Source of the DNA: a virus
Lineage: Duplodnaviria > Heunggongvirae > Uroviricota > Caudoviricetes
DNA: 38,860 nt
Strand: one strand, 5' to 3'
IMG/VR virus record: IMGVR_UViG_2713896899_000004
The notes beneath the pieces were generated by a model. That model had not been told where the DNA came from. It searched no databases and saw only the letters and a list, made by a program, of their open reading frames with translations. Positions 1 through 38,860 of this stretch are shown here, piece by piece; the first letter of the stretch is position 1; each line of letters opens with the position of its first letter. The translations under genes were made by a program, and so were the position numbers.

Positions 1-3
1 TAG

Positions 4-76
4 TCTAAAAACTAGTATTAAGACTATCACTTATTTAAGTGATATTGGTTGTCTGGAGATTCAGGGGGCCAGTCTA
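4..76. repeat. Left terminal inverted repeat (73 bp), perfect reverse complement of 38788-38860; contains internal 20-bp palindrome tatcacttatttaagtgata (25-44)
   Basis: Manual reverse-complement of the last 73 nt matches positions 4-76 base for base; match breaks at position 77 / 38787. Confidence 0.9.
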
Positions 77-109
77 GGTGCACAGGTTTGGTCGCCATCA
101 AGACAGGAG

Positions 110-322
110 ATGGTCGATGCGTTGGCCCCTGTTTATTACCTCGATTATTTTACTCCCTCTGGTTCTGGAAGTAGAACATATGATGTTGAGGCGGGATTGG
201 GAATCGACTATTACATAATGGACGTAACCAATGGGAAATACACAAGTCTTACGGTTTCTGGAAATACCATTTCATGGTCTGGAGCTAGTGGTAATTTAAA
301 CATATTGGTTTTTCAAAAATAA
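110..322 (+). CDS. Hypothetical protein, Gly/Ser/Tyr-rich
   Basis: ORF with strong RBS (caggag) 6 nt upstream of ATG, starting 34 nt inside the left TIR; TAATG overlap with next ORF. Confidence 0.5.
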   Translation: MVDALAPVYYLDYFTPSGSGSRTYDVEAGLGIDYYIMDVTNGKYTSLTVSGNTISWSGASGNLNILVFQK

Positions 323-930
323 TGTACGGAAGCAAGATATATCGATCTGACGGGAAGGTCTGGATGTCTCCTTCTTTGTCTCCTATCGTTTTTCAGAGAA
401 AGCAGGTTGTTTCTTTATCCGGCGGGACAGAGTTTAACACCCAAATATCTCCAGATCGTTCACCGATGATTTTTGTTGCCTATTCGAAAGCTGTTTCATT
501 AATAGCCAACAGAATAGTGCGTAACAACCAGGTGATTTACAGTTTCGGAGGTCAGGGTAGCGACTCTAGTGCCACGATATACGTATTTTCGAAAGGTATA
601 GCCAAAAAAGAAACTTGGGGCATGAGTTTTTTCAATGCACAAGGGGAGGAAATCTATAATACGGCAAATATCCCACTTTCATTTACCTTTCTTAATAATA
701 CGGAGTGGAACAGCTCTGGAGGGCATGTTTTTGATTACCCACCAGCGATAATCCCAACATATGCGAATGTGTTCGCTGTTCCAGTACCGGGCGGAGCCAT
801 GACAATGGTTTATGGATATGCGGCATATGGAAATACTGTTAGCTCGATATTCGTAAACCAACTTAATGGCGGCCATAGTTTTAGCGTAAATGGCAGAGTA
901 CCGGTAATAAATAGAAATCTGTATAACTGA
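322..930 (+). CDS. Hypothetical protein, Gly/Ser/Asn/Tyr-rich (beta-rich, fibre-like composition)
   Basis: 202-aa ORF translationally coupled to the upstream ORF; composition only, no motif recognised. Confidence 0.5.
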   Translation: MYGSKIYRSDGKVWMSPSLSPIVFQRKQVVSLSGGTEFNTQISPDRSPMIFVAYSKAVSLIANRIVRNNQVIYSFGGQGSDSSATIYVFSKGIAKKETWGMSFFNAQGEEIYNTANIPLSFTFLNNTEWNSSGGHVFDYPPAIIPTYANVFAVPVPGGAMTMVYGYAAYGNTVSSIFVNQLNGGHSFSVNGRVPVINRNLYN

Positions 931-937
931 TGAGTAA

Positions 938-1171
938 ATGATGAAAAGATTATTTCTAACAATAGCTGTTGTTCTCTCTCTTACTGGCTGCCAGAAATTG
1001 CCGACACCTATATGTTATGGTGAGGCTATCATTGGTGGACAGGAGACAGTCATACCCATATATGCTGTTAAAAAAGTGAACGACTATACCTTATACAAAG
1101 CGGGTAGCATCTATAACTGGCGATGGGTTGGAGTAGGTGCTTTCTCATCAGTCCGTTGCAATGCTGAATGA
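938..1171 (+). CDS. Small lipoprotein (signal peptide plus lipobox LTGC)
   Basis: N-terminus MMKRLFLTIAVVLSLTGC is a signal peptide with lipobox Cys; mature part about 58 aa. Confidence 0.5.
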   Translation: MMKRLFLTIAVVLSLTGCQKLPTPICYGEAIIGGQETVIPIYAVKKVNDYTLYKAGSIYNWRWVGVGAFSSVRCNAE

Positions 1172-1252
1172 TAGGTAAGTACACACCTACAACAAAAGGG
1201 TGAAATGTGATATAAATCCGCCATCCCGATTTGACTTTTCATGGAGGAAAAC

Positions 1253-1576
1253 ATGTCGAACGAGATGGCGGGCGTTACAACAGAGCAAGTTGAGCGTATT
1301 GCCGCGATCGTTGCTCGGGAGGTTGTTGGCAAATTAGGTAAAGAGCTACGTGAAGAAATTGGCCAGGAGGTCAATGATCAGCTGAAAACCTACTTTGGTG
1401 ATATGACCCCGGCGCAACATAGTATTCAACACTCCAATCTGGACAAACTCCTTAACCGGTTAGATTCCATCTCCAGTGGGTTCTTTGGCGGCATTGTTTC
1501 TAAAATAACGTCGTTCATTATTACTGCACTGCTTTTGGGGTTAGCCGCGTATGGCGTAAAAAATGGACTGCAATAA
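1253..1576 (+). CDS. C-terminally membrane-anchored protein upstream of lysis genes (possible holin or lysis regulator)
   Basis: Start placed at second ATG (1253), which has RBS ggagga 5 nt upstream; track ORF begins at 1241. Single C-terminal TM segment SFIITALLLGLAAYGV; overlaps next gene start. Confidence 0.45.
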   Translation: MSNEMAGVTTEQVERIAAIVAREVVGKLGKELREEIGQEVNDQLKTYFGDMTPAQHSIQHSNLDKLLNRLDSISSGFFGGIVSKITSFIITALLLGLAAYGVKNGLQ

Positions 1577-2282
1577 CAGGAGATCAAGGATGAAGACTCC
1601 GAGAGGCATTCGTAATAATAACCCCGGTAATCTTGATAAAGGATCACCGTGGCAAGGTCTGGTTGCGAATCCAGACGAACCGCGCTTTTGCACGTTTAAA
1701 GACCCTGTTTGGGGGATTCGTGCGCTGGCGGTGACTCTAATTACCTACCACGATAAACGTCGCGCAAAAGACGGCTCAAGTATCGATACCATTCGTGAAG
1801 TTATTGAACGCTGGGCACCGCCGAATGAAAACAATACTGACGCCTACATTAATGAGGTGTCTAAGGCCGTTGGTGTAACCGCAGACATGATCATCGATCT
1901 GCATGATTACGACATCCTTCGACCTTTGGTTGAGGCAATCATTCGCCACGAGAATGGCCAGGGTCCGCTAAAAACGCTGAACACCTGGTATGCGGCAGAA
2001 GTTATTGAGGAAGGTCTGCGTCGGGCTGGCGTTGTTAAGCCGGTGAAAACCGTGAAGGCTGTTCCTGTAACTAAAGAAACAGCAGGCGCAACTGTTACAG
2101 CAGGTATTGGTCTGGCGCAGCTGGCCGATGTTATGCCGCAGGTTTCCGCTGCTATGGATAAGGCACAAGGCCATATCTCTAGCGGGGATACAGTACGCAT
2201 CATCTTCGGTATTGCCACTATTGTTGTGGCAGGATTCATTGCCTGGTCACAGGTAAGAAAACACCAGAAAGGGATGGTCTAA
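1563..2282 (+). CDS. Putative endolysin / peptidoglycan hydrolase with C-terminal TM segment
   Basis: Position directly upstream of the Rz/Rz1 pair (1-nt gap) and overlapping the upstream membrane protein; conserved-looking N-terminus RNNNPGNL; C-terminal hydrophobic helix. Function inferred mainly from gene order. Confidence 0.4.
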   Translation: MDCNNRRSRMKTPRGIRNNNPGNLDKGSPWQGLVANPDEPRFCTFKDPVWGIRALAVTLITYHDKRRAKDGSSIDTIREVIERWAPPNENNTDAYINEVSKAVGVTADMIIDLHDYDILRPLVEAIIRHENGQGPLKTLNTWYAAEVIEEGLRRAGVVKPVKTVKAVPVTKETAGATVTAGIGLAQLADVMPQVSAAMDKAQGHISSGDTVRIIFGIATIVVAGFIAWSQVRKHQKGMV

Positions 2283-2283
2283 T

Positions 2284-2535
2284 ATGCTAGGCAGCCTGAT
2301 GACAAAGCTAAAAGTTGCTTTGATTACGCTGGCTGCCGTTCTTTTCGTTCTGGTCGGCGCTTACACGATGGGCGGGAATGCAGCACGACGAGCAATGGAA
2401 GAGAAGGCAAAACAGGAAGACAGAAAACGACTTCAAAGCACAGTGGACGTCAAAAATGAAACACTTGATGAGTTACGGCGCAAGGATGCTTCTTCTGTTC
2501 ATCATGAGTTGCACAATAAGTGGTTGCGTGATTAA
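2284..2535 (+). CDS. Rz-like inner-membrane spanin (i-spanin)
   Basis: N-terminal TM helix (LKVALITLAAVLFVLVGAY) followed by charged coiled-coil-like region; a lipoprotein ORF starts inside it in another frame. Confidence 0.55.
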   Translation: MLGSLMTKLKVALITLAAVLFVLVGAYTMGGNAARRAMEEKAKQEDRKRLQSTVDVKNETLDELRRKDASSVHHELHNKWLRD

Positions 2536-2686
2536 GCCTCAACCCGCTGGTGTGCTTTTCTGCGATGCGGCTACACCGCTATACATCAGTCGTGATGATC
2601 TCATGACCGAAGAGACTGAAAGAGAGATGCTTTTACACAATATGATAGGGGAGCGATTGTGTGGATGGGGCAGAAAAGTGCCATAA
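2456..2686 (+). CDS. Rz1-like outer-membrane lipoprotein spanin (o-spanin), overlapping Rz
   Basis: Frame +1 relative to Rz; lipobox ISGC with a short mature peptide; starts within Rz and extends past its stop. Start codon uncertain (2456, 2468 or 2486). Confidence 0.5.
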   Translation: MKHLMSYGARMLLLFIMSCTISGCVIKPQPAGVLFCDAATPLYISRDDLMTEETEREMLLHNMIGERLCGWGRKVP

Positions 2687-2863
2687 TAAAAGTGGAGTTT
2701 TCTAACATAAAATTTGCATATTATTAGAGCACAAGGTAGATTTGGCACATGGATGTCAAGCAAATCATACCTTGTTTTAATACATCGACGCATACTCGTA
2801 GCCTCTAAACTCTGACAAGAGTCGCCGCTATGACATTAAGTTAATACCGGCTAAGGTGGACAC

Positions 2864-3247
2864 ATGCTGAACGAAAAACGTTCTATACAAACAATTCGCG
2901 ATTGCACGAGTGTTATCGCAACCCATGTGCTGAATAAGCGCAAACTTGAGGTGCGTAAACTTAACAACGATGCGACAGCGCCAAAAGACACTCGCTTCAT
3001 CGTCACTTTCAAAGACGATGTTGAGAATGCTGGTGCCAGTGTAAAACCGTTGGCTGAAGCGATTTTCCTGAACGATCGTGTGCGTTTCATTGTGAAGCCA
3101 GCAAAACAATACCCTGAATTAGCACGGTTTAGTGATCAATTCTCTGAAATTATTGAGAGTGCAATTCGCCGCTTTCTTAATACTCATGGTAGCATTGTCA
3201 GCAATACAACTGCTGATGGTACTGCTCTAAGATGGCACCTACACTAG
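2864..3247 (+). CDS. Hypothetical protein
   Basis: ORF with RBS aaggtgg upstream of ATG. Confidence 0.5.
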   Translation: MLNEKRSIQTIRDCTSVIATHVLNKRKLEVRKLNNDATAPKDTRFIVTFKDDVENAGASVKPLAEAIFLNDRVRFIVKPAKQYPELARFSDQFSEIIESAIRRFLNTHGSIVSNTTADGTALRWHLH

Positions 3248-3984
3248 AACGCACATACTCTAAAAATCTTGATGAGTTTCCTCACCGTGGGGAAACTCGC
3301 GTTTCACGTTTTGGCTACCTCATCAACGAAGCATCGCTTTTCAAAATATCTGAAATAACCATCATCGAGCCTGATGATGATATCTGTCTGTATATCCTGA
3401 TGGAGAAAGTTGGAGCACGAGATCAGGGTGAACTGATGGACTTCATTCTGGACAGAGGCGAAGATGGAATGTCTGATTCAGACATTATTCAAGCTATTCT
3501 GCGTTCCGACATGCTCGATCAGAGCAGAAACACGATAGCAGGCAGAATTGCCTTGCGTGAATACACATTCATCGAGGATGGGGTAGAGATTGACTGCTAT
3601 CAGATTGCAGGTGTTGAAACAGAAAGAGCAATAAGGCAAAGGGGGCTGTGCAACCTCACGTATCGCTTCCTCCTTCATTGGTACGAACATCTTGTCTGTG
3701 ATTACAATCAGACCATCCCTGGCGCAAAAATTTGGGCCGGCCCATTAATGCGAACAGGTGATGTAAGAATTTACAACGCAAAAACTGAGACGTTCGAGGA
3801 TGTGTTAGGCGAGTATGGAATGGGAAAAGAAACCGGCTTTTTGCCGTGGAACAGAGGATTGTTGCTTGATCCAGAATTAAGCTCTTGGTTCCCAAACAAG
3901 GTGCAAGTTAACATTGAGAAATTTATCGTACTTATCATCTCCCGCAAAACAAGAACTCCAGTAGGTTTATACCTAAAAGATTAA
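3232..3984 (+). CDS. Hypothetical protein
   Basis: 250-aa ORF overlapping the upstream stop; followed by a terminator. Confidence 0.5.
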   Translation: MAPTLERTYSKNLDEFPHRGETRVSRFGYLINEASLFKISEITIIEPDDDICLYILMEKVGARDQGELMDFILDRGEDGMSDSDIIQAILRSDMLDQSRNTIAGRIALREYTFIEDGVEIDCYQIAGVETERAIRQRGLCNLTYRFLLHWYEHLVCDYNQTIPGAKIWAGPLMRTGDVRIYNAKTETFEDVLGEYGMGKETGFLPWNRGLLLDPELSSWFPNKVQVNIEKFIVLIISRKTRTPVGLYLKD

Positions 3985-3989
3985 AAATC

Positions 3990-4012
3990 AGGCGACTTTG
4001 GTCGCCTTTTTT
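3990..4012 (+). terminator. Rho-independent terminator
   Basis: Stem aggcgac / gtcgcct with loop tttg, followed by a T run. Confidence 0.6.
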
Positions 4013-4160
4013 GTTAACTGCCATTGATTCTCGCCTAAAAATTCTAAGGCAGCACCTACCATTTAACCTTTACACAGCAGCCGTAGGCATTTAGGCTATA
4101 TCACATATAAGAAAACAAGTTGTTTCAGACGATAATAATAGACGCAAAGGGAACTATCCA

Positions 4161-6545: not shown

Positions 6546-7286
6546 ATGAGCCAAATCTTTTTCGATACCATCGACAACGACCAGTACGACTTCATGACAG
6601 AGTGGAATACCGCTGTTATGGACAAGTGGGTCGCTGAAAACATTGGTTTGTCGCGTTGCAAAGACGAGGCTGAACTCTTCGAGACAAAGTGGTTTGATTA
6701 CCGCGACATGCATCCTCTGATGGCCACCTGTCTTTTTACGGAGGCATACAAACGTCAGTACTCAAATATCATGCTGACGCACGGTCGCGAACACTTTGAA
6801 ACAGCTCCGTTCACCACCGGGTTAAAACGTCTGCCTTATCAGGAGTTGTCGACTGCCAATAAAACGTCGCTATGGAAAGCACGCCAGTTTGCTGACCGCT
6901 ATTGCTGCTCATACGACTACTTTATTTCCACCGTTCTTTCCGCAGCAGCACGACGTTTGTGGGACAAGTTGCCGCGCCCACAACATTTGTGGCAGCCAGA
7001 GTTGATTGAGATATTCGAAGAGAAATTAGCCAGACGCGCAACAACCCGTCTGGATGACTCTCTGGTTAGCTTTAAGCATATGGGAGACATGCAGTTCAAC
7101 CCGATTCAGGAAAGCTATTTTGAGTGGATTCTGGAGCGTTTACGCACCATCCCCCGCAGCAAGCGCATACGCGCAATTTTCTCCGCTATCTGGCTAATGG
7201 AAATCGTTCCAGAGCGCCTTATTTCCGCCCACTTTCCAGAAGAACTGGAAGAAGCACGGCGGTTTATTGATCCCCTATCTAATTAA
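6546..7286 (+). CDS. Hypothetical protein (first gene of the replication block)
   Basis: ATG at 6546 with RBS aggtga 6 nt upstream; 246 aa. Confidence 0.5.
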   Translation: MSQIFFDTIDNDQYDFMTEWNTAVMDKWVAENIGLSRCKDEAELFETKWFDYRDMHPLMATCLFTEAYKRQYSNIMLTHGREHFETAPFTTGLKRLPYQELSTANKTSLWKARQFADRYCCSYDYFISTVLSAAARRLWDKLPRPQHLWQPELIEIFEEKLARRATTRLDDSLVSFKHMGDMQFNPIQESYFEWILERLRTIPRSKRIRAIFSAIWLMEIVPERLISAHFPEELEEARRFIDPLSN

Positions 7287-7329
7287 CTAATACTAGAAAA
7301 CAATTTGTTTAAAAAACAAAGGAAAGCAC

Positions 7330-14246: not shown

Positions 14247-14321
14247 GATGGTGTAGCTCAGCGGTAGAGCAGTTGGCTGTTAACCAACTGGTCGGTGGTT
14301 CGAATCCACCCACCATCGCCA
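14247..14321 (+). tRNA. tRNA-Asn (anticodon GTT)
   Basis: Hand-folded cloverleaf: 7-bp acceptor gatggtg/caccatc, anticodon loop ctGTTaa, T-loop ttcgaat, 3' CCA encoded; differs from the E. coli tRNA-Asn sequence. Confidence 0.8.
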
Positions 14322-14323
14322 AT

Positions 14324-14399
14324 GCCGGTTTAGCTCAGTTGGTAGAGCGCCTGCCTTGTAAGCAGGATGTCAGCGGTTCGAGTCCGTTAACCGGCACCA
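14324..14399 (+). tRNA. tRNA-Thr (anticodon TGT)
   Basis: Acceptor gccggtt/aaccggc, D-arm gctcagttggtagagc, anticodon loop ctTGTaa, T-loop ttcgagt, CCA encoded. Confidence 0.8.
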
Positions 14400-14623
14400 A
14401 TACAACGATAAGATCATTACGGTTAATCGTCGTTCATGTGCACAATGACTGGTCGAAAGGTAGTGATCTTACCGTTGTGGTGGATTCGCAGACTGATGCG
14501 ATAGCTTTCTTGGATGTTAGGGAAATGCGGCCGCAAATCTTCCCTTTCGCGAGCGGTGATCGTCCGTAGTCCTAATTGGCTGCACCGTATGCCGGAGATT
14601 CAGTACCGGCCACCACAACGGCC

Positions 14624-14710
14624 GGAGAGTAGGGAGCATGGTGCTCAAGCGGTCTTGAAAACCGCCCCATTGCGCAAGCGATGATGGTTCGATTCCATTA
14701 CTCTCCGCCA
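14624..14710 (+). tRNA. tRNA-Ser (anticodon TGA), class II with long variable arm
   Basis: Acceptor ggagagt/actctcc, anticodon stem-loop gcggt-ctTGAaa-accgc, long variable arm, T-loop ttcgatt, CCA encoded; D-arm slightly irregular. Confidence 0.65.
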
Positions 14711-31195: not shown

Positions 31196-31248
31196 TTCTC
31201 GTTATTATCACACACAAGAAAACAATTTGTTAAAAGGTTAAGTTAATT

Positions 31249-34898: not shown

Positions 34899-35432
34899 CA
34901 CCGCTGACAGCATACACAATCAACTGCCGCTGATAGCATATCGAGAGTCTATCTCACCGCTCACAGCATACTTTACTCGATTTTTTACCGCTGACAGCAT
35001 ACTTAAGACATTGCATGAATAATGTGTACCGGTATGGGTATAACCAGAACAAAATTACCGCTGGCAGCATACGAAGGTCTGACATATGCCATTAATTACC
35101 GCTGATAGCATATCCAAACAAAAATTCCTCAATAAAACACCGCAGACAGCATACGTTCTATCAGGGAGCAGCAGGCAATAAATGCCTTTCACTACAAGCA
35201 ATCAGCGCAATAGCAATAGAATGTTAGTGAGCGCAAACCTATATGGAATGCACTCTTCGAGGTTAGTAACCACTGGGGAGGTATGACAGAGCATTGAGTG
35301 GTGATAGATGATTTACCGCTCACAGCATACGTTCATCTCACTAGACCGCTGGTAGCATATCTTTAACCGTTCACAGCATACTTTTCAGAAAAATAGCCGC
35401 TGATAGCATACATTTCACCGCTGACAGCATAT
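34899..35432. repeat. Iteron array, about 12 copies of a 17-bp repeat (consensus yACCGCTGACAGCATAC), downstream of rep (copy-control, incA-like)
   Basis: Copies read at 34899, 34924, 34955, 34986, 35056, 35097, 35138, 35314, 35344, 35365, 35395 and 35416, in both orientations with irregular spacing. Confidence 0.8.
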
Positions 35433-36545: not shown

Positions 36546-36648
36546 AACCGCTGACAGCATACTTGATTTGCCGCTGGCAGCATACCAAAAACAGTTGGCA
36601 GCATACGGCGAACCGTTGACAGACTATCAATTACCGCTGGCAGCATAC
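36546..36648. repeat. Iteron array, 4-5 copies of the same 17-bp repeat, upstream of rep (origin iterons)
   Basis: Copies at 36546, 36569, 36592 (degenerate), 36611 (degenerate) and 36632. Confidence 0.75.
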
Positions 36649-36688
36649 ATGAACATGGCTTCAGACCAGTCGTGGCGCGGCTTACAGC

Positions 36689-37746: not shown

Positions 37747-38790
37747 ATGACTTTGCCATACGGCGTCATTTCTGACTGCCACTACCACAAATGGGATGCG
37801 TTCTCCACGACGAACGCTGAGGGGCTTAACTCCAGACTTGAAATACAGTTGGAAGCAACGAAAGAAGCAGCCATCGCCATGAAGAAGGCCGGTTGTAAGT
37901 ACATGTTGGTTGCCGGTGATACATTTCACGTCCGAGGAACTGTGTCCCCTTCTGTTTTGCATTACGTAACTGAAACGTACAAGTGGATTATCAACGAGCT
38001 TGATCTGACAGTAGTAATGCTGGCCGGTAATCACGATCTTGAAACCAACGATTCAGTATATAGCGCCAACGCAGCAGCATCGCTGAGTTCTATCGGCGTG
38101 GTAATCGTATGTGGCAAGCGCCCACACTCAATAAAAATTGGTGATGTGACTGTCCACCTGATTAGCTGGCGTAACAATCATGCGGAGCTTATCAGCGATC
38201 TGAAAGCATTACGTAAGAGCGTAGAAGGTGATAATCATGACGTTGTTATCCATACATCCATTAACAAAGCCATTCCAACAATGCCTGACGTCGGTATCGA
38301 TGCGCAGGAGTTAAAGGATATCGGCTTTCGTCTCGTGCTTAGTGGGCATTACCACAACCACAAAGAGGTCATTCCTGGAGTTATCAGTGTCGGTGCGCTG
38401 ACCCATCAAAATTGGGGAGATGTTGGATCTCTGGCTGGTTACATGATCGTAAACCCGGACGGCAGTTTCAGTCACTACGAAACCAGTGCGCCTAAATTCA
38501 TTAACCTGGAAGATTATGTTGCCGATGACCAAATTCGCGGCAACTACGTGCGTTTCCGCGCCGTAATTGAGAACGATGAAGAAGGCATTAAGTACCAGAA
38601 TATCCTCAAAACAATGGGCGCAAAAGGTGTCGTGTGCAACTTCATCCGTAAGTCATCAATGATGGAAGGGACAGCAAGCACAACGGAAACCAGCAAAATC
38701 GATAGCTTGGGAGAGTCGGTATCTGCTTATTGCAAGATTGTCCACGATACTGACGGCGGATTTGATCTGAGCAAGTTGGATATTTTGTAG
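37747..38790 (+). CDS. Calcineurin-like metallophosphoesterase (SbcD/Mre11-like nuclease family)
   Basis: Phosphoesterase motifs in order: DCHYH, AGDTFH, AGNHD, SGHYHNH; conserved aaaggaaaaacacATG start; stop codon lies inside the right TIR. Confidence 0.6.
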   Translation: MTLPYGVISDCHYHKWDAFSTTNAEGLNSRLEIQLEATKEAAIAMKKAGCKYMLVAGDTFHVRGTVSPSVLHYVTETYKWIINELDLTVVMLAGNHDLETNDSVYSANAAASLSSIGVVIVCGKRPHSIKIGDVTVHLISWRNNHAELISDLKALRKSVEGDNHDVVIHTSINKAIPTMPDVGIDAQELKDIGFRLVLSGHYHNHKEVIPGVISVGALTHQNWGDVGSLAGYMIVNPDGSFSHYETSAPKFINLEDYVADDQIRGNYVRFRAVIENDEEGIKYQNILKTMGAKGVVCNFIRKSSMMEGTASTTETSKIDSLGESVSAYCKIVHDTDGGFDLSKLDIL

Positions 38791-38860
38791 ACTGGCCCCC
38801 TGAATCTCCAGACAACCAATATCACTTAAATAAGTGATAGTCTTAATACTAGTTTTTAGA
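38788..38860. repeat. Right terminal inverted repeat (73 bp), partner of 4-76
   Basis: Same comparison; the stop codon of the last CDS (38788-38790) lies inside the repeat. Confidence 0.9.

Follow-up and report, generated by a model that had tools for sequence, protein, structure and literature searches.

Endolysins that carry a membrane domain at the C-terminus have been described in the Chi-like siphoviruses (Casjensviridae), namely ORF39 of Hafnia phage Enc34 and M4Lys of phage BSPM4. The catalytic domain of Enc34 ORF39 is muralytic on several Gram-negative species and the full-length protein is toxic (PMC8943055). M4Lys removes N-acetylglucosamine from muropeptides (N-acetylglucosaminidase activity) and alone lyses E. 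coli; azide delays this lysis without stopping it, and truncation of the C-terminal domain abolishes it (PMC7143992). Both papers leave unexplained the route by which the catalytic domain gets past its C-terminal anchor to the periplasm (PMC8943055, PMC7143992). An endolysin with a C-terminal transmembrane domain (TMD) has also been reported for Acidovorax phage AP1 (PMC8879335), the likeness here being one of topology. SSU5 is a recognised phage-plasmid group (PMC7969092), common in E. coli and Salmonella, and in Salmonella phage SSU5 (SSU5_026-030) and Escherichia phage Cyrano (CYRAN_22-25) four genes are annotated as holin, endolysin, Rz and Rz1. Here we examine a 38,860-nucleotide viral contig (IMG/VR record IMGVR_UViG_2713896899_000004), the whole of which we refer to as the window. 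It is very probably a contig of an SSU5/pHCM2-type phage-plasmid of E. coli, of which positions 1253-2686 form the late four-gene lysis cassette.

This assignment rests on nucleotide identity and synteny with complete members of the group, including their partition, replication and tRNA modules. E. coli plasmid p009_B, a circular replicon of 110,182 bp, is 100% identical to the window over 74-3000 and 99.8% identical over 74-25000. At least 80% of positions 1-25000 is covered by 91 PLSDB plasmid records, those listed being of about 110 kb. The remainder of the window encodes parA, a DnaB-like helicase, a ligase, tRNAs, DnaE, RecA and RepB. The virion module of an SSU5-type element lies outside it: directly to the left, p009_B carries genes for two tail-fibre/tail proteins, tail assembly, tape measure, capsid, portal and terminase. 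In all likelihood the window is a 38.7-kb piece, bounded by IS2, of a phage-plasmid of about 110 kb, and holds the cassette together with the plasmid-maintenance and replication half, the virion half lying beyond the left IS2 break.

The cassette is common to phages SSU5, Cyrano and PhiR41_1. SSU5 and Cyrano have the same four genes in the same order and between the same neighbours (cor upstream, parA downstream), and the proteins of genes 1-4 in the window share 96%, 94%, 80% and 67% identity, respectively, with those of SSU5. Four open reading frames (ORFs) on the + strand encode a membrane protein, an endolysin, an i-spanin and an overlapping o-spanin. They match phrog_5093 (unknown function; E 8e-69), phrog_873 ('endolysin'; E 5.5e-89) and two families labelled 'Rz-like spanin', phrog_1026 (E 2e-23) for gene 3 and phrog_1275 (E 1.4e-22) for gene 4, while Pfam at its thresholds recognised none of the four proteins. 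The initial annotation had proposed the order membrane protein, putative hydrolase, i-spanin and o-spanin, on which ORFs, PHROG families and hydropathy agree; its functional reading of the region as a lysis cassette is borne out by homology, by the GenBank annotation of SSU5 and Cyrano and by the solved structure of a homologous catalytic domain.

Conservation of the cassette was assessed in 80 related SSU5-like IMG/VR contigs or loci, using pairwise ratios of non-synonymous to synonymous substitution (dN/dS). Gene 1 was intact in 80/80 loci, the endolysin gene in 79/80, and Rz and Rz1 each in 77/78, the non-intact cases being contig ends or single partial matches. The dN/dS values were 0.040 for gene 1, 0.047 for the endolysin, 0.20 for Rz and 0.19 for Rz1. 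This combination of intactness and dN/dS in related loci indicates that the cassette ORFs are not due to chance, and by dN/dS gene 1 is as constrained as the enzyme. The spacings between genes (13 nt from gene 1 to the endolysin gene, 1 nt from there to Rz, then the Rz/Rz1 overlap) suggest translational coupling of the four genes.

Gene 2 (1590..2282, + strand) encodes a 230-aa endolysin of the Enc34 ORF39/M4Lys type, as identified from PDB 7Q47, Foldseek and Enc34 homology. Its start is ATG 1590 and not 1563, since this codon has an AGGAG 7 nt before it and every homologue starts with MKTPRGIRNNNPGN. The protein consists of a PHA02564 catalytic domain (aa 1-150) and a C-terminal membrane domain (aa ~160-230). 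A phmmer search of the PDB matched 7Q47, the Enc34 endolysin's catalytic domain, to aa 3-151 (E 5.5e-54). An AlphaFold2 (AF2) model from 34 homologues has a pLDDT of >90 across aa 40-150, for which Foldseek returned 7Q47 as the sole significant structural match (E 1e-17, TM-score 0.86, 59% identity). Identity with Enc34 ORF39 is 54% over the full length, membrane domain included, and both Enc34 ORF39 and M4Lys share with the window protein the PHA02564 domain, the catalytic Glu/Trp/Tyr, the C-terminal two-helix membrane domain with its cationic tail and the homologous overlapped Rz/Rz1 genes that follow; the window differs in that its host element is a phage-plasmid. Glu121 (codon 1950..1952, + strand), within an RHENG motif, is the predicted catalytic glutamate and corresponds to Enc34 Glu131 in the numbering of that paper. 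In 34-35 homologues there is no variation at E121, W75 or Y86, the counterparts in the alignment of Enc34 Glu131, Trp79 and Tyr95, which are the active-site residues assigned previously (PMC8943055). Homology and structure prediction for 1563-2282, the check proposed in the initial annotation, thus identify a homologue of peptidoglycan hydrolases and not a member of a non-hydrolase family. At about 54% identity to the tested proteins, the window endolysin would be expected to share their muralytic activity and TMD-dependent lysis.

The membrane domain comprises two helices. A proximal, weakly hydrophobic helix (aa 164-182; 2079..2135, + strand) has a Kyte-Doolittle value of 1.11, consists of 58% Gly/Ala/Thr and is modelled by AF2 as helices of low confidence. 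The distal transmembrane (TM) helix (aa 204-222; 2199..2255, + strand) is strongly hydrophobic (Kyte-Doolittle 2.07), falls within AF2 helix 199-226 and leads into a cationic tail, RKHQKGMV; it is conserved in the Enc34/Chi-type homologues. There is no N-terminal signal, and the whole domain can be aligned column by column with that of Enc34. The C-terminal hydrophobic helix noticed from the sequence at the outset is therefore real. The holin/endolysin topology was also described as atypical, which it is, although it is not new, having been published for M4Lys and Enc34. A detail undiscussed in either paper (PMC8943055, PMC7143992) is the conservation of the region joining the two domains. The PVTKET linker (aa 159-164; 2064-2081) is nearly invariant, G174, Q177, P183, A188, S198 and G199 are also conserved, and linker and proximal helix are conserved as strongly as the catalytic core across homologues from Enterobacteriaceae, Pasteurella and Alcaligenaceae. 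Conservation equal to that of the enzyme suggests that this region makes a specific interaction rather than serving as a passive anchor.

The two spanin genes complete the cassette. Gene 3 (2284..2535, + strand) encodes an 83-aa i-spanin (Rz), whose TM helix at the N-terminus (aa 11-29; nt 2314-2370; Kyte-Doolittle 2.38) is followed by a charged helical periplasmic domain; the protein is homologous to Enc34 ORF40 (27% identity, E 2e-7). Gene 4 (2456..2686, + strand), in the +1 frame, encodes the 76-aa precursor of an o-spanin (Rz1) with 49% identity to Enc34 ORF41 (E 2e-22). Although the ORF in its longest form opens at 2378, the gene starts at ATG 2456, which is conserved in related loci, as is the signal peptide. 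The overlap of Rz1 with Rz is 80 nt long, and Rz1 continues for a further 151 nt after Rz has ended, as had been proposed for an o-spanin gene that starts in another frame inside the i-spanin gene and extends beyond it. The part encoded inside Rz is almost exactly the signal peptide. This signal is of the signal peptidase II type, MKHLMSYGARMLLLFIMSCTISG followed by C, and the predicted lipidation site is the cysteine of a conserved lipobox (I-S-G-C24; 2525..2527, + strand), leaving a small mature lipoprotein of 53 aa. All variants from related loci have the lipobox [IT][SN]GC, which aligns with VSGC of Enc34 Rz1; an earlier Cys19 is not conserved. Valine at residue +2 suggests sorting to the outer membrane. 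As in lambda Rz/Rz1 and P2 LysB/LysC, an i-spanin with an N-terminal TM helix is paired with an o-spanin lipoprotein in the +1 frame, overlapped as in P2. The window spanins (83 aa, and 53 aa mature) are, however, much shorter than those of lambda; the i-spanin has no cysteine, and in the mature o-spanin there are two in addition to the lipidated one. A published census puts the SSU5 o-spanin in the 'Chi' family (PMC6139136), and judged by homology the spanins are of the Chi/Enc34 lineage.

Gene 1 (1253..1576, + strand), by contrast, is unrelated to the first gene of the Enc34 cassette. It occupies the position of a holin gene and encodes a 107-aa tail-anchored inner-membrane protein of the phrog_5093 family, as judged from PHROG, hydropathy and an AF2 model. 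A ribosome-binding site, GGAGG (1243..1247, + strand), lies 5 nt before ATG 1253 and is conserved in related loci. A dual start (ATG 1241 and ATG 1253) was considered and is not convincing: ATG 1241 overlaps the Shine-Dalgarno sequence, lacks one of its own and is replaced by CAC in three loci. The initial annotation had noted a C-terminal anchor, and the protein indeed has a single TM helix, placed right at the C-terminal end (aa ~81-99; nt 1493-1549; Kyte-Doolittle 2.02), beyond which there are only about eight residues (YGVKNGLQ, with one Lys). In the AF2 model there is one long helix from aa 10-48 and another from aa 53-103, and the latter continues without a break from an HxxxH motif into the membrane helix. 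This motif (His56 and His60; 1418..1432, + strand) forms part of the signature YFGDMTPxQHxxQHxR seen in family alignments, and no residues of the family are more conserved than its two histidines, which are invariant or nearly so in members down to about 20% identity. Enc34 ORF38 has the opposite arrangement, with an N-terminal TM helix and a C-terminal coiled coil where the window protein has an N-terminal helical domain and a C-terminal TM helix; BLASTP found no match between the two, and ORF38 scored 5.9 bits against the family profile, so that homology to the Chi/Enc34 'holin' was rejected.

No described holin family accommodates gene 1. Neither it nor 34 family members matched Pfam, and its only PHROG match is phrog_5093, labelled as of unknown function. 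Like canonical holins, it adjoins the endolysin gene within the cassette, but it lacks their hydrophilic, highly charged C-terminal tail. Homology to XhlA was also rejected: PF10779 matched 0/34 members in Pfam searches, with 1.8 bits by hmmsearch and a probability of 3.9% by hhalign, while SPP1 gp24.1 itself matched PF10779 at E 3.9e-14. The hmmsearch scores in these comparisons were below 6 bits.

Close relatives of gene 1 were found only in SSU5-like elements, as 30 clusters among 5.8 billion proteins, and tblastn with three single family members matched, each time, the same 12 SSU5-like records among 50,697 deposited phage genomes. In a search for related loci, the broad alignment offered no conserved stretch fit for use, the close alignment returned SSU5-like loci only, and the remote alignment returned two viral loci and one metagenome locus. 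A profile search of 1.84 billion representative proteins extended the family to 59 relatives with the same architecture and motif: proteins 100-140 aa long that have charged helices in the N-terminal part, one TM helix at the C-terminus and the signature YFGDMTPxQHxxQHxR...D..S..FWG. An Alcaligenaceae prophage encodes a 99-aa protein (L008:3705-4004) with the same topology and an H..YH motif, upstream of a PHA02564+TMD endolysin of 59% identity; at 3 bits it was not accepted as a family member. In a Pasteurella prophage (L006), an 85-aa protein without any TM helix lies upstream of the endolysin.

We then considered the gene context of eleven remote family members in metagenomic phage loci. 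In four of these (L010, L012, L098 and L100) the gene 1 relative is followed by a Peptidase_M15_3 endolysin and then by a small membrane protein, which has two TMDs in L010 and L098. Others precede Amidase_2 and then a two-TMD protein (L015), Glyco_hydro_108 (L014), a PHROG holin and then a PHROG endolysin (L013), Holin_2-3 and then an SLT endolysin (L102), Holin_2-3 and then an ORF that is cut by the contig end (L101), or a two-TMD protein (L097); one has no visible partner (L103). Remote members therefore head cassettes with at least four unrelated endolysin types (Peptidase_M15_3, Amidase_2, Glyco_hydro_108 and SLT-type), which indicates that the gene 1 family belongs to lysis cassettes whatever the type of endolysin. 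A second small protein with one to three TMDs is present in 9-10 of the 11 contexts, in three cases from recognised holin families. A two-TMD protein of 72-91 aa recurs after the endolysin (L010:4291-4566, L015:3800-4057, L098:3707-3925) with the motif RP(Y/F)(V/L)T...N...D(Y/F)(I/V)(M/Q)...GP.N...WF.ER; it has no Pfam match and no annotated PHROG function, and probably represents an undescribed holin family.

These contexts resemble those of XhlA and SPP1 gp24.1 (PF10779) in Bacillus phages. The latter proteins, about 85-110 aa long, combine a cytoplasmic helical domain at the N-terminus with one TM helix at the C-terminus; they are encoded first in the cassette and kill only together with a two-helix holin (PMC6316719). 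Both XhlA-type gene orders occur among the remote relatives of gene 1: relative-endolysin-holin, as in SPP1 (24.1-25-26), and relative-holin-endolysin, as in PBSX (xhlA-xhlB-xlyA; PMC6316719). The two groups differ in that no sequence or profile similarity is detectable between them, the hosts of the window group are Gram-negative, and the SSU5 cassette has no separate two-TMD holin. Most remote members do have a putative holin of this kind beside them, whereas in the window the endolysin's own domain is the only other membrane module before the spanins.

By this analogy, gene 1 may encode a cooperating partner or timer of lysis, a reading that we hold at slightly less than even confidence. 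The four genes would be expressed together late in infection or after induction. The gene 1 protein, its helical domain with the HxxxH motif lying in the cytoplasm, would act as the timing component, a membrane partner cooperating with a second membrane-lesion module, as XhlA/gp24.1 do with a two-helix holin; here the second module would be the membrane domain of the endolysin. That domain, by homology, would hold the endolysin at the inner membrane and give the glycosidase access to murein, whereupon the all-helical PHA02564 domain, with Glu121 as catalytic residue, would cut the glycan strand, as expected from related enzymes of measured activity. After murein degradation, the Rz/Rz1 complex would disrupt the outer membrane, as its homology and architecture predict. 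More tentatively, gene 1 could define an undescribed tail-anchored lysis family of Gram-negative phages, recognisable by the YFGDMTPxQHxxQHxR/HxxxH motif and acting as an obligatory partner or timer that is convergent with XhlA/gp24.1, such that in SSU5-type cassettes, and perhaps in others, gene 1 and the endolysin together make a holin split into halves, one of them fused to the enzyme.

Several points weigh against this reading. No homology of gene 1 could be detected to XhlA, to the Chi/Enc34 first gene or to any holin that has been characterised, and the first gene of BSPM4, itself non-homologous, had no clear effect on lysis (PMC7143992). The endolysin membrane domain shows no similarity to the two-TMD, Holin_2-3 or phrog_8226 proteins beside remote gene 1 relatives, so replacement of a holin by this domain is a functional analogy only. 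For the same reason, and because Pfam gave only noise below threshold, we rejected the C-terminal domain as a fused holin. The functions given for SSU5-type cassettes are annotations. A scan of 900-3000 for promoters and terminators found no + strand consensus around the cassette and fewer matches than in shuffled sequences, which leaves the operon boundaries tentative.

A rather doubtful alternative is that gene 1 encodes a holin or pinholin that needs no partner and represents a new class, tail-anchored by one TMD. It would collapse the membrane potential at a set time and thereby release the endolysin, whose membrane domain would be just a tether that lets go on depolarisation. Gene 1 has the canonical position of a holin gene and is the only small membrane protein of the SSU5 cassette, and its relatives directly precede four unrelated endolysin types. 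The authors of the Enc34 study themselves speculate on a scheme resembling pinholins and signal-anchor-release (SAR) endolysins (PMC8943055), and the Gly/Ala/Thr content of the proximal helix is SAR-like. SAR endolysins with their pinholins (phage 21, P1 Lyz) do resemble the window enzyme in being membrane-tethered through a weakly hydrophobic Gly/Ala/Thr-rich helix and, in over-expression, in permitting lysis without a large-hole holin. With its membrane domain at the C-terminus, however, the window endolysin cannot have its catalytic domain exported through Sec by a signal-anchor, and azide did not block M4Lys. A self-sufficient holin is also at odds with the second small membrane protein in nearly all the remote contexts, recognised holins among them, with the absence of the charged C-terminal tail typical of holins, and with the ability of homologous endolysins to lyse cells without any partner.

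That last property would call for a brake, and gene 1 might be an antiholin-type inhibitor that holds back a membrane-anchored endolysin which is lytic in itself, and in this way averts premature lysis. Produced alone, homologous endolysins are lytic or toxic; family members often precede a separate holin, and co-expression of the non-homologous first gene of BSPM4 led to slightly slower lysis (PMC7143992). This effect was nevertheless small and was attributed by its authors to expression level (PMC7143992); gene 1 has no homology to known antiholins, and its architecture fits that of XhlA/gp24.1, which promote lysis. We therefore regard inhibition as improbable, and cooperation between gene 1 and the endolysin as the preferred account.

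A different alternative concerns the element and not gene 1. The initial annotation placed the cassette against the left terminus of an element that lacks virion genes, and considered a lysis cassette odd in such a setting. An orphan cassette could reside in a plasmid-like element that had lost its virion genes or never had them, and be put to another use, such as toxin release or altruistic lysis. The 38.9-kb window itself does have no capsid, tail or packaging genes, and at its borders stands IS2, an element able to mediate deletions. The sequence of its ends tells otherwise. Bases 1..76 are an outward-facing IS2 terminus, matching IS2 in many phage and E. coli records, and homology to p009_B begins at base 74; a second, inverted terminus (38788..38860) is a perfect 73-nt copy of the left end, 100% complementary to it. 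The left copy removes the first codons of an SSU5_023-like gene, of which ORF 110-322 is the remainder, and the right copy interrupts a metallophosphoesterase (SbcD-like) gene (ORF 37747-38790) about 15 codons before its end, leaving it truncated at the 3' side. The window ends are thus a contig or repeat break at IS2 and not a terminus of the element. As one IS2 terminus stands inverted at both ends, the replicon must contain two inverted IS2 copies with more DNA between them, and a circle made of the 38.7-kb segment and a single IS2 is impossible; a deletion derivative of this kind was excluded. Recombination between two such inverted copies would flip the 38.7-kb segment. The apparent lack of virion genes, and with it the oddity of the cassette, is therefore an artefact of the window, the virion module lying immediately to the left in p009_B. 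With this module, the many PLSDB plasmids that share the region and the strong purifying selection on the cassette across 80 viral contigs, an orphan cassette is very improbable.

Least credible of all is the idea that the PHA02564 protein is a virion-associated, wall-piercing enzyme of infection ('structural protein P5' or 'virion protein') and not an endolysin: the same domain does occur in tape-measure, internal-virion and ejection proteins (phrog_7182, phrog_2276, phrog_992), yet the window protein is a stand-alone protein of 230 aa encoded between a holin-position gene and spanins, is a full-length orthologue of proteins that cause lysis from within, and has no other annotated lysis-gene candidate beside it in the cassette or in the examined regions of relatives. 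The domain (window 1590-1960) also forms the N-terminus of PDB 9VVP Gp29 (1295 aa), and T7-like internal virion proteins contain it, as do tape-measure proteins and small 'P5-like' proteins of tailless phages. Its presence in both virion proteins and endolysins indicates that one enzyme module serves entry and exit.

Beyond the cassette, the window contains a number of other features. Directly upstream lies cor (938..1171, + strand), a superinfection-exclusion lipoprotein gene (phrog_1119, E 2.3e-30) that is annotated as cor in p009_B; it marks the end of the tail-fibre region and has the same position in SSU5. Downstream, the segment from Rz1 to parA (2700-4160) varies among relatives. In the window it holds ORFs 2864-3247 (phrog_2594) and 3232-3984 (phrog_3307), which have no assigned function; this 1.4-kb segment is different in Cyrano, which encodes a KacT-type toxin-antitoxin pair there on the opposite strand, and in SSU5, where other ORFs are present. 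At 14247-14710 ARAGORN predicted genes for three tRNAs (Asn-GTT, Thr-TGT, Ser-TGA), compared with four annotated in p009_B (Ser, Thr, Tyr, Asn), a small difference in the cluster.

Three families of repeats were also observed. A 33-nt family (ATAAGTA..TACTTACTTATC...) has five copies dispersed over the replication half (9948, 13464, 16277, 30067 and 37615), and may be a shared promoter or regulator site. A 32-nt repeat with a palindrome-like core, AGAAAACAA(G/T)TTGTTT, has three copies (4097-4128, 7282-7313 and 31204-31235) and may be an operator or parS-like site, because its first copy is immediately upstream of parA (4161). Iteron-like repeats of 32 nt, three in number (CATA..C.AT.AA.T.CCGCTGATAGCATATC; 34911-34942, 35083-35114 and 36618-36649), are situated beside and inside the region of the RepB replication initiator.

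The cassette had already been annotated in SSU5 and Cyrano and the endolysin topology had already been published; the part that is unstudied is gene 1 and the phrog_5093 family, which is absent from Pfam and labelled as unknown in PHROGs. The Enc34 arrangement was described as apparently limited to Chivirus and some related viruses (PMC8943055). Our comparison indicates that the large SSU5 phage-plasmid group, too, has the Enc34/M4Lys type as its standard endolysin, and Pasteurella and Alcaligenaceae prophages encode full-length relatives. Single-sequence tblastn matched only SSU5-like phages in deposited genomes, and it is possible, if far from assured, that gene 1 of this group is the only representative of its family in cultured phages. 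With only the 12 SSU5-like records matched, SSU5, Cyrano and similar phages are the natural systems for the gene 1 family. If gene 1 and the endolysin membrane domain do form a split-holin pair, this would also explain how endolysins of the Enc34/M4Lys type reach the cell wall.

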